A stretch of 62,957 nucleotides of DNA, counting the filler, from Globobulimina sp. (taxonomy: Eukaryota): the NCBI GenBank assembly GCA_003354225.1. It is 52 parts of 52 records of this genome, joined end to end, with 100 filler letters (N's around TTAATTAATTAA, not from the genome) between each part and the next. Parts side by side here need not be neighbours in the genome. Positions count along the whole stretch, not along the records: positions 33,969 to 35,081 come from PIVH01023182.1; 51 more parts are not named here. One strand, given 5' to 3'. A program made the translations under genes and the position numbers. Each line of letters begins with the position of its first letter. Position 1 is the first letter of the stretch. The notes under the pieces are model-generated. The model was not told the origin of the DNA. It made no database searches and worked only from the letters and a program-made list of their open reading frames with translations. Positions 6,070 to 36,393 of this stretch are shown here, piece after piece.

Positions 6070-7182
6070 TTTGAGGTTTTTAATGGCGTTCAATTTATCA
6101 GTGATCACATAATCAATGATGGAGCCTCCTGTATGTGCAGTATCTTTGGAAAGGCAAGTCAAGAAATATGGCGCGAATATTGGGTTAGCAATGCGGAGAT
6201 TGGTGCTGTTAAGAAGGGACTTCATGTGCCTATAGTGCGCGTTTGTGTTATGATCTGTGGTTTCAGCGCCCAATCTGGCGTTGAAATCGCCAATTACAAA
6301 TACATTTTCGTAGTCTGGTTTGAATCGGATGATGTCTGCAGATAATGCGCGATAGAATTTATCACTGCGTTCGGCTAATTGAGAGTGATACGGTCGTATG
6401 TAGTTTATTGAGAGGTAGGTTGGCTTCGGTTGAGATACGAAATCAATTGAGAGCCAGACTGTATTCATCCCTCTCGTTTTCTGTATATAATGAATGTTGT
6501 TTTTTAGATGTCTTTTTTTGTATATTATTATGCCGCCAATGTGGGAGAGATTGTTGGAGTGTGTGGGGGGTTTATGGGCAATTAAAGTGTAGCCTGGGAG
6601 TTTCCATTTAGGTCTCGCTATGCATCGGGTATCAATCAAGCATATAATATCTAGTTTATGGTGCACCACTAACTGTTGCATGTATGGGTGTACGTGTTGG
6701 GTTTTATATTTGGTGTTGCCGTTTATATTTAGGAACCCAATGGTTAGGTTTTTGAGCGATATTTTGGTTGCAACGATGGGTTCAACTTTTGGGGCATACA
6801 TTTGGAGGAAGGGGAATTTTTGGATGATGTTGGGGAGATCATCCTGTTTAAACATGTCATTATTGAGATGACACTGTATGATTTTATGGATCAGATATTT
6901 TTTATACTTTTTTAGGTTAATTTGATTGGATTTGTAATGGGAGACAGCATATTTGAAGAGTTGGTTGAGGGATAATATTGCATTATTTTTCATGTTATTT
7001 ATATGGCGGGCACGGTGTATTCGGTGCAAGTTTGTGCAGTTGAAACGTTGGATGGATTGCCAGTGAGATATTATGTTTCTCGCTTGTTTATCTTCTGGCA
7101 CATTCCAGCGTATGTGATATTTGTTTTGTTTGATGGATTGTTGGATGGTGGCATCCCCATCAACATAATTAAACTTATTGAT
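6070..7182 (-). mobile_element. Non-LTR retrotransposon APE-type endonuclease region
   Basis: IGFLNING, DIICLIDT, GGIIIY, INYIRP, VIGDFNAR, SIIDYVI. Confidence 0.85.
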
Positions 7183-14561: not shown

Positions 14562-15673
14562 CATTATATTGTCATCACGAAGAAACCAGACATTATTTTA
14601 TTACAAGAAGTCAATAAATTTTATAATGAGAATGATGCGAATATAACCATCAAAATTAAGAATTATAAATCATTTATAATCAAAAAAAATGGATATGGAA
14701 AAGTAATAACATTGCTCCGTAATGGTATACACCATGAAAGAATTAATATTAATTTCAAACACAATGCACGAATCGATAAAAAAATAACAGAGTTAGATAC
14801 AACAGATGAGCAACAAAGGAAAATCAAGAAACAACTCCTAATGTCAAAATTGTACGTATTGTCGTTAAAAGTGTACGATAATGACATGGGACAAGCTTTT
14901 ATTGTAAGCAATTATTATCGTCCACAGAATGGCATTCCCGGCTCAAATCTAGGCCTATTATTGAATTATCTAAATACAGTGCTAAAAACTAAGAATTATG
15001 CATCATTTCCGAACTATATTGGAGGTGATATGAATGCACATAATAAGGCATGGTTTGAGGGAGAAATTAGAGCATCGAAGGCAAAGAAATGCGGGGAAGA
15101 ATTGGCAGAGTGGATATATGATAAAAAATGGTTAATTTTGAACGATTTAAAACCAACGAGACTCCGAAATGAACAGAGAACGGCACCGGACGTCATATTT
15201 ATAAATAACAAAACAAAAAAGGATGATTGGAAGTATTGGGCCGAAGATTTTACGCGTTTGGATACAAACAATTACTTCTCAGACCATTTGGTATTATTTG
15301 CCTTTTATAACAAAGGCGAATTGTATGAGGAGGAACTGCCCGAATTTGCGATAAAAACGGGTTCAGATAGAAATTGGGATAAATGGAGAAACGAATTGGC
15401 AGAAAACGTAGATGAATGGGATGATATTTATGGTAATCAATTAAATAAATTAATAACTCATTATTTGGAAGTTTATGGCAATGGAAACTGTGACATAAAC
15501 AGTGAGTATTTATTAAAACATATTAAAATGTCAAAGGATGATGTATTGGATGCTGTGAATGACTTCTTTAAACATAGAATTGTCGACACATCCATCGACA
15601 TTCTGGGATTAAGAAAGAAAACCATCGGAAATGACAAACCGTGGCTGACCAAGAAGATGAAAAATGCGATGAA
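14562..15673 (+). mobile_element. Non-LTR retrotransposon ORF2: APE endonuclease and linker
   Basis: PDIILLQE, NYYRP, GGDMNAHN, ILND..PT, TAPDVIF, SDH, KPWLT; open across the whole contig. Confidence 0.9.
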
Positions 15674-33968: not shown

Positions 33969-34383
33969 GTGTAATCTTCGTCTGTAGTGGCCGTTGGATA
34001 CCATATTACATCAATAAAATCCAACCATGTTGCTTTCCCAGCACCATACGTAATTACGTATGCATGATAATATGTGTTGAATCAGGCAAAAATAAATGAT
34101 GAGGATCAGTAAAATCAGTGATATGTTTTCCATTAATTGAAACATGTGGATCAGCCCATACATGGACATATGGGGTTTCTTTCTGATCGGGGTGCCACAC
34201 TTTGAACGCTTGATGAACAAATGTTATTTCATAACCACCAGGTGTTACAATTTTATTATCTTCTTTATAAAGATATAAACTTCCAACCAATAATGCTAAA
34301 ATTACTGTTGATTCATCAATCGTGCCACTTCGAATATGCATTGGTTTTAATAGTAATGCAATCAAAAAAATAAAAGATTTCAT
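33969..34383 (-). CDS. Secreted DUF1521/MIIA-like (D-P autocleavage) domain protein; frameshift at ~34055
   Basis: Signal peptide; IVTPGGYEI..HVWADPHVSINGKHITDF..FLPDSTHIIMHT, continuing VITYGAGKATWLDFIDV in the shifted frame. Confidence 0.65.
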
Positions 34384-34488
34384 AGCTGGTCTGACACTGC
34401 TTGACTTCGGATCGTTTGTTTTGAAGATTTTAAATGTTTTTTGAAGATTTTTAAAAAATACTAACTCACTTACAACACCACTCCGACC

Positions 34489-34851
34489 ATGTCATCAAAG
34501 GCTAACAATTATGAATTACCAACAACATCGGTTGCAAAAATTATCAACAAAGCAAATCCAAATATTAAAGTAAAAAAAGACGCCAAACAAGCCATATCTA
34601 AGGCAGCCGGAATCTTTGTATTATATTTAGCCCATAATGCGAATGAATTGTGCAAAAACTCAAATCGAGTGACCATCCAAGCAGATGATGTCTTAAATGC
34701 ATTGAATAATATTGAATTTGGTGAATTTAATGATGAATTAAAAAAAATCTTAGCTTCCTACAGAAGACAACAAAAACAAATCAAAGAATCGAAAAAACAG
34801 AAAAAAGAAAATGCAAAAAAATCCACAGCCACAACATCCAACGATCACTAA
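34489..34851 (+). CDS. POLE3: Histone-fold protein, DNA polymerase epsilon subunit 3 / CHRAC17 (Dpb4)
   Basis: LPTTSVAKII, KDAKQAISKAAGIFVLYL, RVTIQADDVLNAL..IEF. Confidence 0.85.
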   Translation: MSSKANNYELPTTSVAKIINKANPNIKVKKDAKQAISKAAGIFVLYLAHNANELCKNSNRVTIQADDVLNALNNIEFGEFNDELKKILASYRRQQKQIKESKKQKKENAKKSTATTSNDH

Positions 34852-35289
34852 TTTCAACCTTGTAACTGTTTTTATTCACTATTTAATTTATCCTTGCACA
34901 CCAATACAAGAATGAGTTTGTGAAAATGCATAATTTGACATGAATGGATGTATGATGTAAGAGGCACAAATTTATTACACAATAGCAACACAACAAAATA
35001 ATATAAAACAACACAAAAACAATCATCAAATGCCATAAAATTTCTTTTGGGTCTCTCAATTCCAGTATTTTGAAAAAACCTNNNNNNNNNNNNNNNNNNN
35101 NNNNNNNNNNNNNNNNNNNNNNNNNTTAATTAATTAANNNNNNNNNNNNNNNNNNNNNNNNNNNNNNNNNNNNNNNNNNNNCCACTGGGTCATCGCCTCG
35201 CCATGGTCGTGGAAGAGACCATCGTAGGCGCCCGTTGAGGTTTCGGCATAAGTCGGATTGGCGTGGATGTTCGTCGTGTGGCCAACGCC

Positions 35290-36253
35290 AAACCAGAAAA
35301 ACTTCCATTTTAAGCCGTGCGAATTGACTAAAAAGGAATCTTTGATTTTCATCTCGTCGTCGAACATCGAACTGAATATAATATAACGGACATTCCACTC
35401 CAAGACACTGCCCAAATATCCAAGTTCCGCCTCCTCCGACGCCACACTCTCATTTTCCTCCTTATTACGCAGCAAAGCGTCTTCTTCCGCTTCGGCGTTG
35501 AATTTCAATTTGAAGTTTCTTTTTTTTTTCATTTTCATTTTTTTGGGTTTAAATTTGCTTTTTTTTTGTTTTTGTGTGGGGAATGAATATTTGTTTCGAT
35601 TGGAAGTGGGCGACCGCGAAAAGGCGGCGGTGTTTGCGGGGAATCTGAAGTCCAAAATGCGTTTGTTTATGAATGCGATGATGTAGTTTTCTTTGCGTAA
35701 GATTCTGTTGGTTATGTCCAAGGCGTCTAAGTATTTGTTGTGGTACAGACGGATCGACTTCTTTTGCAGCGACACGATGTTGTTTATAACCGAGGACCAT
35801 GGCAGTTGCCGCAATAACTCGTCATTTATGTTTAATTTGTCCGCGTAGAATGACTGTGTGGTGGCCAGCGACGTTAAGGAAGCGACCAAGTTCAATAAAT
35901 GCCAAATGAAATATAAGATGAACACAATGGTGTAAATCACCACAATGGCGCCGAATATCCTATTTTTGACGATGTTGTTTTGGATCAACACAACATTCTT
36001 GCATTCCCCATCAGATTTGCCGCAGCTGATCACGCGATGCCAGTCAATAAAACCAACCAAAAACACTGAAAATGAGATGGTGAAGGCGATGGTGATGAGG
36101 TTGGAGATTTTGGAGTAAATTATGGACCAAAAGCCGCCTTGTTTGTGGTACTCGTAAATGTGATTAAAATAAGTGTCCAAATTTTTGATTGATAAAAATT
36201 CTCGCGAGGCATGAGCCTCTTCGTCGTCTTCTAGATATCTTTCTGGATATCGG
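35290..36253 (-). CDS. ATG9: Autophagy-related protein 9 (partial)
   Basis: IKNLDTYFNHIYEYHKQGGF, ITIAFTISFSVFL..IDW, LDITNRILRKENYIIAFINK, LEWN. Confidence 0.93.
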
Positions 36254-36393
36254 CTACACGTAAAGGGGCAGATGTTAATTTTTGGATTTTTATNNNNNNN
36301 NNNNNNNNNNNNNNNNNNNNNNNNNNNNNNNNNNNNNTTAATTAATTAANNNNNNNNNNNNNNNNNNNNNNNNNNNNNNNNNNNNNNNNNNNN

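Follow-up and report, generated by a model that had tools for sequence, protein, structure and literature searches.

A frameshifted gene with a divergent DUF1521/MIIA-like domain, and a candidate family of eukaryotic relatives

The MIIA (metal ion-inducible autocleavage) domain, Pfam family DUF1521 (PF07481), has to our knowledge been characterised only in bacterial proteins of the type III-secreted kind. Here we describe a DUF1521-like open reading frame (ORF) in DNA assigned to Globobulimina sp. (assembly GCA_003354225.1); it lies on the contig at positions 33969-35081 of a 62,957-base stretch, the whole of which is referred to below as the window. For the Vibrio MIIA domain, which is very acidic and for the most part disordered, it is reported that Ca2+ or Mn2+, but not Mg2+, makes it fold, that cleavage occurs after the Asp of GDPH, and that the substitution D116A blocks it (PMC6506597). 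Metal-inducible autocleavage is likewise known for NopE proteins, as cited in that account (PMC6506597). Autocatalytic cleavage at GDPH is also described for VWD proteins and ITH3 (PMC8267560), where it can take place at low pH or in the endoplasmic reticulum (ER) and generates a reactive Asp-anhydride.

The reading we favour, and consider rather probable as a whole, is that the ORF represents a small eukaryotic family of proteins of ~228 aa that combine an N-terminal targeting signal with a divergent, putatively self-cleaving homologue of DUF1521/MIIA, and that the copy in the window is broken.

Relationship to DUF1521/MIIA

The ORF (Table 1) translates as MKSFIFLIALLL...IVTPGGYEITF...HVWADPHVSINGKHITDF...FLPDSTHIIMHT followed by the stop, and its earliest in-frame ATG is at 34383; the peptides quoted in a preliminary description of this DNA are present exactly, in this ORF and in the frame one base back. 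When the 109-aa translation was compared by phmmer with 1.84 billion representative proteins, 12 matches were obtained at E≤1e-3. Two are source-labelled EukProt: P0002 (228 aa), which matches the ORF along its entire length at 77% identity (E 9.8e-52), and P0005 (227 aa), which is 39% identical. Seven others (P0006-P0012) are bacterial, with E values of 1e-6 to 4e-4 and identities of 27-50% by row (42-50% for the four single-stretch rows), and every one of them carries PF07481 at 1e-7 to 4e-38. Because these seven Pfam-assigned DUF1521 proteins were matched among 1.84 billion representatives, we regard the question of homology as settled with very high probability: the ORF would encode a true but divergent homologue of DUF1521/MIIA that lies below the Pfam membership score. 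The remaining three matches (P0003, P0004 and P0013) were set aside as spurious, being long repeat proteins without DUF1521 in which many weak stretches had been aligned.

Profile comparison points the same way. Aligned by hhalign, a profile of P0002 and P0005 matched a profile built from 12 bacterial DUF1521 segments with a probability of 98.4% (E 7.6e-15) over 120 columns, spanning residues 37-163 of P0002 and reaching to column 130 of 186 in the template. The blocks common to the eukaryotic and bacterial proteins are TPGGY, PD-K-T, W-x-DPHV, DF, LPD(G)T-I and T. Among 80 bacterial segments, 21 columns are at least 90% conserved, and the window keeps 14 of the 20 that can be scored, including the G-Y of TPGGY, the W, D-P-H-V, D-F, L-x-D, T, I and T; lost are a T (to V), an R (to H), the Gly of GDPH (to Ala), an F (to L), the Gly of LPDGT (to Ser) and a further Gly (to Tyr). 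D78-P79-H80-V81 of the window aligns with D-P-H-V columns conserved in 80 of 80 bacterial sequences. The Ala-Asp-Pro-His of the ORF thus has Ala at the position where bacteria carry Gly, and the earlier observation of ADPH in place of GDPH is borne out, the window having WADPH against WGDPH in 85 of 85 bacterial high-scoring segment pairs.

There is a second Asp-Pro-His in the ORF (FTDPHHLF; D93-P94, at 34105-34107 and 34102-34104), 15 residues past the first; it is kept in P0002, reads TEPHH in P0005 and is not in the bacterial consensus.

In the AlphaFold2 model of P0002, built from an 82-row alignment (mean predicted local distance difference test score (pLDDT) 73, predicted template modelling score 0.70), residues ~40-135 are all-beta and confidently predicted (block means 88-94), and W-A-D-P sits in a turn between strands 76-78 and 83-86; pLDDT is 63-86 over residues 140-200 and below 50 over residues 2-35, which form no confident structure. 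Chains containing VWD or RGM domains account for 15 of the 25 top VIA-align rows at Z 3.5-5.9 (MUC5B, VWF, MUC2, MUC5AC, FCGBP, vitellogenin, Cypridina luciferase and RGMB), with MUC5B as the best row (Z 5.9, 82 aligned residues, root-mean-square deviation 3.2). The model is weakly suggestive of a VWD-like beta-sandwich: each match is weak, but the VWD/RGM enrichment is striking. With a predicted fold that is weakly VWD-like, DUF1521 and VWD would look like related folds and not like alternatives.

A better match to VWD, the competing assignment named in the preliminary description, did not emerge by profile, with Pfam VWD (PF00094) giving no match at E≤10 for any of the three eukaryotic sequences (the window ORF, P0002 and P0005). 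NCBIfam gave chance-level rows only, and a PDB sequence search with P0002 gave nothing beyond one chance-level row (E 0.8). In a language-model protein atlas the top assignment was ITI_HC_C (0.88), followed by DUF1521 (0.85); both scores are under 0.9 and are taken as leads only.

Family-profile matches of 124-399 aa in a 5.8-billion-protein set were confined to P0002 and P0005, and a length-matched protein search with the 109-aa ORF, limited to candidates of 59-191 aa, returned no relative. Among prokaryotes, a scan of one genome per species gave 269 confirmed relatives out of 372 pattern matches. The best 80 of these 269 come mostly from Myxococcota (Corallococcus, Myxococcus, Archangium, Cystobacter and Pyxidicoccus), the other groups being Pyrinomonadaceae (Acidobacteriota) and Sphingomonadaceae/Sphaerotilaceae; the highest identity among the scanned loci is 44-46% over ~71 residues (L001-L003), and P0007 reaches 50% over 67 residues. 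No relatives were present among 164 pattern matches in IMG/VR viral contigs or among 201 in JGI metagenome contigs, and the latter gave no exact match to a degenerate pattern encoding YVHVWADPHV. A full-text literature search on DUF1521, NopE1 autocleavage and 'metal ion-inducible autocleavage' returned no eukaryotic member by title or abstract. The eukaryotic members are a novel variant of the already known DUF1521/MIIA domain.

At the N-terminus of the ORF, Lys2 precedes a 10-residue hydrophobic core, SFIFLIALLL (residues 3-12; mean hydropathy 3.5 over nine residues), and a second hydrophobic stretch, STVILALLVGSLYLY, occupies residues 25-39. P0002 has the same two-stretch layout, and P0005 has a single longer hydrophobic N-terminus, as judged by hydropathy. 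The signal peptide proposed earlier can be kept in this form: a hydrophobic N-terminus of ER-signal type, read heuristically from hydropathy alone, which is likely to be an ER signal peptide or signal anchor.

Frame break and genomic setting

The P0002 sequence runs without interruption through the site at which the window ORF ends (...HIIMHTYGTG..., HIIMHTYGTGPATWLNFIDVIWYP). In the window, an 8-nt palindromic insert centred in a 10-nt palindrome shifts the frame and creates the stop; the resulting 18-bp palindrome is unique in the 63 kb (Table 1). The contig ends ~27 codons past this break, and P0002 extends for ~90-100 residues more. The run that best covers the locus, X1, is possibly the source sample and hence not independent; its record 1 covers 34029-34379 with no gaps at depth 6.3 and keeps the 8 nt. 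In run X5, which is labelled as a different organism and comes from another study (depth ~170), record 6 matches 34016-34225, differing by six substitutions and by the omission of 8 nt at 34047. The 8 nt are real in the DNA of the X1 sample and absent from a 97%-identical relative. The peptide described earlier as lying in a shifted frame is present, and its frame is due to an 8-nt insertion that neither the X5 copy nor P0002 has.

The 97%-identical X5 copy differs from the ORF at six sites, five of them synonymous and the sixth S82T, and by one I-to-V change in the tail. Since five of the six ORF differences are synonymous, the gene is under purifying selection in relatives, and these comparisons indicate that an intact, selectively constrained version is present in a closely related organism. 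The window copy is probably a recent pseudogene or null allele. No second copy of the gene was found within the window by tblastn.

Another way to read the insert is as an 8-nt duplication in near-tandem (TACGTAAT/TACGTATG); it might have arisen by slippage or as the footprint of an excised transposon, the pattern under the footprint reading being a near-tandem TACGTA-AT-TACGTA with an 8-nt period. Two intron readings were tried and rejected: the 8-nt insert as a tiny intron, a size without known precedent, and a 25-nt GT...AG stretch, removal of which leads straight to a stop on hand translation.

Table 1. Features of the contig carrying the DUF1521-like ORF (positions are those of the window)
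Feature	Position	Strand	Description
DUF1521-like ORF	34054-34383	-	109 codons + TAA; hydrophobic N-terminal signal and the first ~65 residues of the domain (~43-109)
W-A-D-P-H, codons 76-80	34144-34158	-	Read directly; predicted scissile bond Asp78-Pro79
N-terminal hydrophobic signal, residues 1-20, MKSFIFLIALLLKPMHIRSG	34324-34383	-	From Kyte-Doolittle windows
18-bp perfect palindrome, CATACGTAATTACGTATG	34045-34062		8 extra nucleotides inside; frame shifted, TAA stop at 34054-34056 created
Domain continued in the -1 frame, (T)YGAGKATWLDFIDVIWYPTATTDEDY	33969-34051	-	Translation runs to 33970; aligns with P0002 residues 112-138
Histone-fold gene	34489-34851	+	120 aa, H2B-like; Pfam CBFD_NFYB_HMF (PF00808) 1.3e-13
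Divergent intergenic region	34384-34488		105 bp, from the ORF ATG to the start of the histone-fold gene

The window is a chain of 52 unrelated contigs (1112-1114 bp, length-sorted, GC content 0.25-0.45) split at N blocks. Copies of a linker 12-mer, TTAATTAATTAA, occur 51 times at a spacing of 1212-1214 bases, each central in a 100-nt N block, and any reading across a linker is a fusion of unrelated DNA. The sole genuine context for the ORF is the contig at 33969-35081 (1113 bp, GC 0.32), and as position 33969 is its first base, the DUF1521-like gene is truncated there.

On this contig the ORF lies head-to-head with a histone-fold gene. In PDB sequence searches the product of the neighbour matched CHRAC-14 (5.4e-14), NF-YB3 (7.1e-12), the Dpb4 subunit (subunit D) of Schizosaccharomyces pombe DNA polymerase epsilon (1.3e-11) and NC2 beta (2.6e-11). 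By these matches it belongs to the CHRAC-14/POLE3/Dpb4, NF-YB and NC2-beta class, with scores too close to single out one ortholog. Of the earlier POLE3/Dpb4 assignment, the histone-fold class and the 105-bp head-to-head arrangement stand; the choice of ortholog is less certain, NF-YB and NC2-beta being nearly as close. In contigs of runs X5, X6 and X8, all 12 listed differences in the histone-fold gene are synonymous, and both genes are found in runs of two differently labelled organisms.

GC content at third codon positions (GC3) is 0.19 in the DUF1521-like ORF and 0.275 in the histone-fold gene; of 15 other eukaryote-type ORFs in the window, 12 have values of 0.18-0.31. Given the histone-fold neighbour, a GC3 like that of the window's genes and close relatives labelled EukProt, the DUF1521-like gene sits in the DNA of an AT-rich eukaryote, in agreement with the eukaryotic gene context and similar composition first described. 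Other contigs of the window carry ORFs that match eukaryotic families: ATG9, RFC1-like AAA, UCH, RCC1, BART, GT10 fucosyltransferase, protein kinase, PI3/PI4-kinase, Sof1/WD40, SH3 and endonuclease-reverse transcriptase. This family scan took in 53 of 72 stop-to-stop ORFs of at least 110 aa, the 19 shorter or overlapping ones being dropped.

In the intergenic region there are two copies of TTTTGAAGATTTT, at 34419 and 34439 (20 bp apart); the region may possibly be a shared promoter, with TTTTGAAGATTTT as a common promoter element. Record 3 of run X1, at a depth of 34.8 (about five times higher), matches 34419-34451 only, with unlike sequence on both sides; this partial match indicates a look-alike of the 33-nt stretch elsewhere in the X1 sample.

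Several further observations concern the surroundings of the two genes. Contigs from runs guessed to be RNA (X6 and X8) cover 34476-34853 only, no RNA run is listed for the DUF1521-like gene, and none of this has a bearing on expression or linkage; the starts of these contigs lie 2-13 nt ahead of the histone-fold ATG, and their ends fall in the span from 10 nt short of the final stop-codon base to 2 nt past it, which hints at very short untranslated regions or at divergence outside the coding sequence. A 70-codon ORF at 34872-35081 (-) faces the histone-fold gene tail-to-tail and is open at the right end of the contig (RFFQNTGIERPKRNF...KDKLNSE and stop); a third gene may have its 3' end here, and 34957-35081 is covered in run X5. 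Elsewhere in the window, contig-filling ORFs at 6070-7182 (-) and 14562-15671 (+) are non-LTR retrotransposon fragments, with Pfam matches to Exo_endo_phos (2.6e-9) and endonuclease-reverse transcriptase (4.3e-12), and an ATG9 autophagy protein fragment at 35182-36291 (-) (PF04109, 6.2e-54) has a GC3 of 0.58, well above that of most window genes.

Cleavage, origin and alternative explanations

By analogy with NopE1, Vibrio VIC_001052 and the GDPH-bearing VWD domains, the protein would enter the secretory pathway via its N-terminal hydrophobic signal, and its beta-sandwich domain would fold, probably with the help of Ca2+. The chain would then self-cleave at the Asp78-Pro79 bond of W-A-D-P-H by way of an Asp-anhydride, yielding a small N-terminal fragment and a larger C-terminal one, which possibly stay associated. 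The family would most likely stem from a bacterial gene acquired long ago and by now fully adapted to the composition of its host.

A number of observations weigh against this reading, the first of them concerning how much of the domain is recognisable. Against a Pfam DUF1521 gathering cut-off of 23.6 bits, the window ORF scores 14.4 bits (E 0.041; residues 51-108 against profile positions 18-77 of 169) and P0002 20.6 bits (E 4.9e-4), both under the cut-off; these matches are confined to positions ~16-82 of the 169, and P0005 gives no match in the same search. A conserved C-terminal Trp column (76 of 80 bacterial segments) is a gap in P0002 and lies past the contig end in the window. The DUF1521 assignment made in the preliminary description thus holds at the level of phmmer and hhalign homology but falls short at the Pfam score. 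The copy at hand is, moreover, both frameshifted and truncated.

Further points of the same kind bear on cleavage, and they belong equally to the alternative that survives best, which we rate as possible though on the unlikely side: a true DUF1521 homologue that in eukaryotes no longer cleaves itself, and that acts within a small secreted or membrane-anchored protein as a binding or structural module, a stable beta-sandwich. The Gly of GDPH, invariant in 85 of 85 bacterial segments, is Ala in the window and in P0002, and the Gly of LPDGT, found in 80 of 80, is Ser in the window. P0005 is without W-x-D-P-H altogether and keeps the remainder of the protein, so the family can persist minus the cleavage motif. 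Acidity is lower as well, with 29 Asp + Glu against 19 Lys + Arg in the 188 aa of mature P0002, compared with 42 against 21 in the 171 aa of Vibrio MIIA, and P0002 is confidently folded in prediction, unlike the disordered MIIA. Against a loss of cleavage, the window, the X5 copy and P0002 (77% identical) all retain W-x-D-P-H-V exactly, substitutions between copies are mostly synonymous, and the Asp-Pro bond, the chemically labile element, is intact. The Gly-to-Ala change, the weaker negative charge, the confident predicted fold and the motif-less paralogue P0005 are nonetheless grounds for doubt, and whether the intact relatives are competent to cleave is, by analogy with the characterised domains, close to an even question with a slight tilt towards no.

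The favoured reading of the family's origin, transfer from bacteria, is also open to objection. In a quick maximum-likelihood tree (95 rows, 178 columns) the three eukaryotic rows group together with a Shimodaira-Hasegawa-like approximate likelihood ratio test value of 100, but their branch is long, isolated and in no named bacterial clade, and gives neither donor nor direction; warnings of long-branch joins and deviant composition apply to this tree. Naming a donor lineage was accordingly dropped, the tree being too long-branched. With three eukaryotic sequences against hundreds of bacterial ones, and no similarity to eukaryotic VWD, bacterial transfer is nevertheless the simplest reading; the horizontal acquisition proposed in the preliminary description can be retained as plausible, with a long isolated eukaryotic branch and no donor.

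The same isolated branch, outside the named bacterial clades, would suit a branch of the VWD/GDPH superfamily that is old and native to eukaryotes, and whose likeness to DUF1521 would then reflect common fold ancestry. The VWD-containing chains among the top predicted-fold rows are in keeping with this, as is the weak Pfam VWD match (1.3e-5) that the bacterial DUF1521 protein P0012 also has. Every single fold match is weak (all Z<8), and Foldseek found nothing for the P0002 model in the PDB at E≤1e-3. We consider a native VWD branch improbable, given that Pfam VWD is not matched by any of the three eukaryotic sequences, that identity to Myxococcota reaches 44-50% over ~70 residues against nothing detectable to eukaryotic VWD, that the cysteine framework is absent, and that three eukaryotic sequences stand against 269 confirmed bacterial loci.

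Less probable still is a contig from something other than the labelled organism's nuclear DNA, be it a chimeric assembly, an associated bacterium, a giant virus or another eukaryote. The contig is just 1113 bp long, with a depth of ~3-6 in the likely source run, its layout is intronless, compact and AT-rich, and sequences 97-100% identical to it occur in a run labelled as another organism. Independent contigs fail to span the ORF start by the required 31 nt in both directions: record 2 of X1 (34368-34560), the sole independent contig over the intergenic region, enters the ORF by just 16 nt, short of this 31-nt rule, and run X5 has no cover over 34235-34462 and none over 34919-34956. These gaps in linkage also count against the favoured reading. 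Yet record 2 is continuous from the first 16 nt of the ORF through the intergenic region into the histone-fold gene, so that the junction between ORF and POLE3-like neighbour, flagged earlier as a possible chimera, is crossed, though not by a full bridge. The GC3 of 0.19 matches the neighbour and most window genes and is far from the GC-rich composition of the Myxococcota genera that hold the nearest bacterial relatives; those relatives reach 44-50% identity only, and the 164 IMG/VR pattern matches contain none. A source in an associated eukaryote would, in any case, leave the nature of the gene unchanged.

Last, it is very unlikely that the 8 nt are removed or bypassed in expression, as a tiny unconventional intervening sequence or by a -1 frameshift, leaving the window copy functional: the insert is a perfect 8-nt palindrome centred in a 10-nt one, the copy without it comes from a run (X5) of unknown library type with mainly coding cover, and a -1 shift at the stop would add three residues only, but in-register GT-AG ends and a slippery heptamer are both absent, the palindromic motif occurs nowhere else in the window, 8 nt is far below the size of any spliceosomal intron we know of, and X5 also differs by substitutions, which makes it another strain or species and the indel most simply a DNA difference.

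Comparison with known systems

If the favoured reading is correct, a eukaryotic family that keeps the Asp-Pro and replaces the invariant Gly is a natural test of what the motif requires, and it would be a case of gene flow from bacteria to a protist. MIIA is in use as a self-removing purification tag, and variants of it may have practical value. These merits are tempered by a window copy that is broken and truncated, activity and localisation being predictions. Tentatively, and with some way to go before it could be called likely, a protist lineage might have domesticated MIIA as small secretory self-cleavers (A-D/P-H) whose Asp-anhydride could couple them covalently to a component of the cell coat or matrix, as happens with ITIH and the VWD domains of mucins. 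Such a family would be the first MIIA of a eukaryote and would provide a sequence bridge between bacterial MIIA and animal GDPH/VWD autocleavage as one ancient fold and chemistry.

Like the described MIIA/DUF1521 domains (PF07481; Bradyrhizobium NopE1 and NopE2, Vibrio coralliilyticus VIC_001052), the eukaryotic proteins have the shared sequence blocks and an Asp-Pro at the homologous position, with an hhalign probability of 98.4%, and P0002 is predicted to be all-beta. They differ in having a eukaryotic host, a hydrophobic ER-type N-terminal signal instead of type III secretion, and Ala for the invariant Gly; only the first two-thirds or so of the domain can be aligned, the C-terminal Trp is missing, the proteins are less acidic, their scores lie below the Pfam cut-off, and their cleavage activity is putative.

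The nearest sequences found, the DUF1521 proteins of Myxococcota (Corallococcus, Myxococcus, Archangium and Cystobacter), Pyrinomonadaceae and Sphingomonadaceae, are themselves uncharacterised. Every one has WGDPH, many contain several domains or tandem repeats (P0006, P0008, P0010 and P0012 among them), and their genomes are GC-rich; the eukaryotic clade lies on a long separate branch from them.

A third point of reference is provided by the GDPH-bearing VWD domains (MUC2, MUC5AC, FCGBP and RGM) and the C-terminal domain of ITIH heavy chains. VWD domains have a conserved disulfide framework; the window ORF has no Cys, mature P0002 has two and P0005 has none. The eukaryotic protein is also much smaller and single-domain, with no Pfam VWD match and no detectable sequence similarity to VWD or ITIH. 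Its likeness to these proteins lies in a weak predicted-fold resemblance (MUC5B, Z 5.9) and in the Asp-Pro-His, for which Asp-anhydride chemistry is described (PMC8267560). Taken with the VWD-like predicted fold, the eukaryotic family hints at a common origin of MIIA and the GDPH-type autocleavage seen in mucins, RGM and ITIH.

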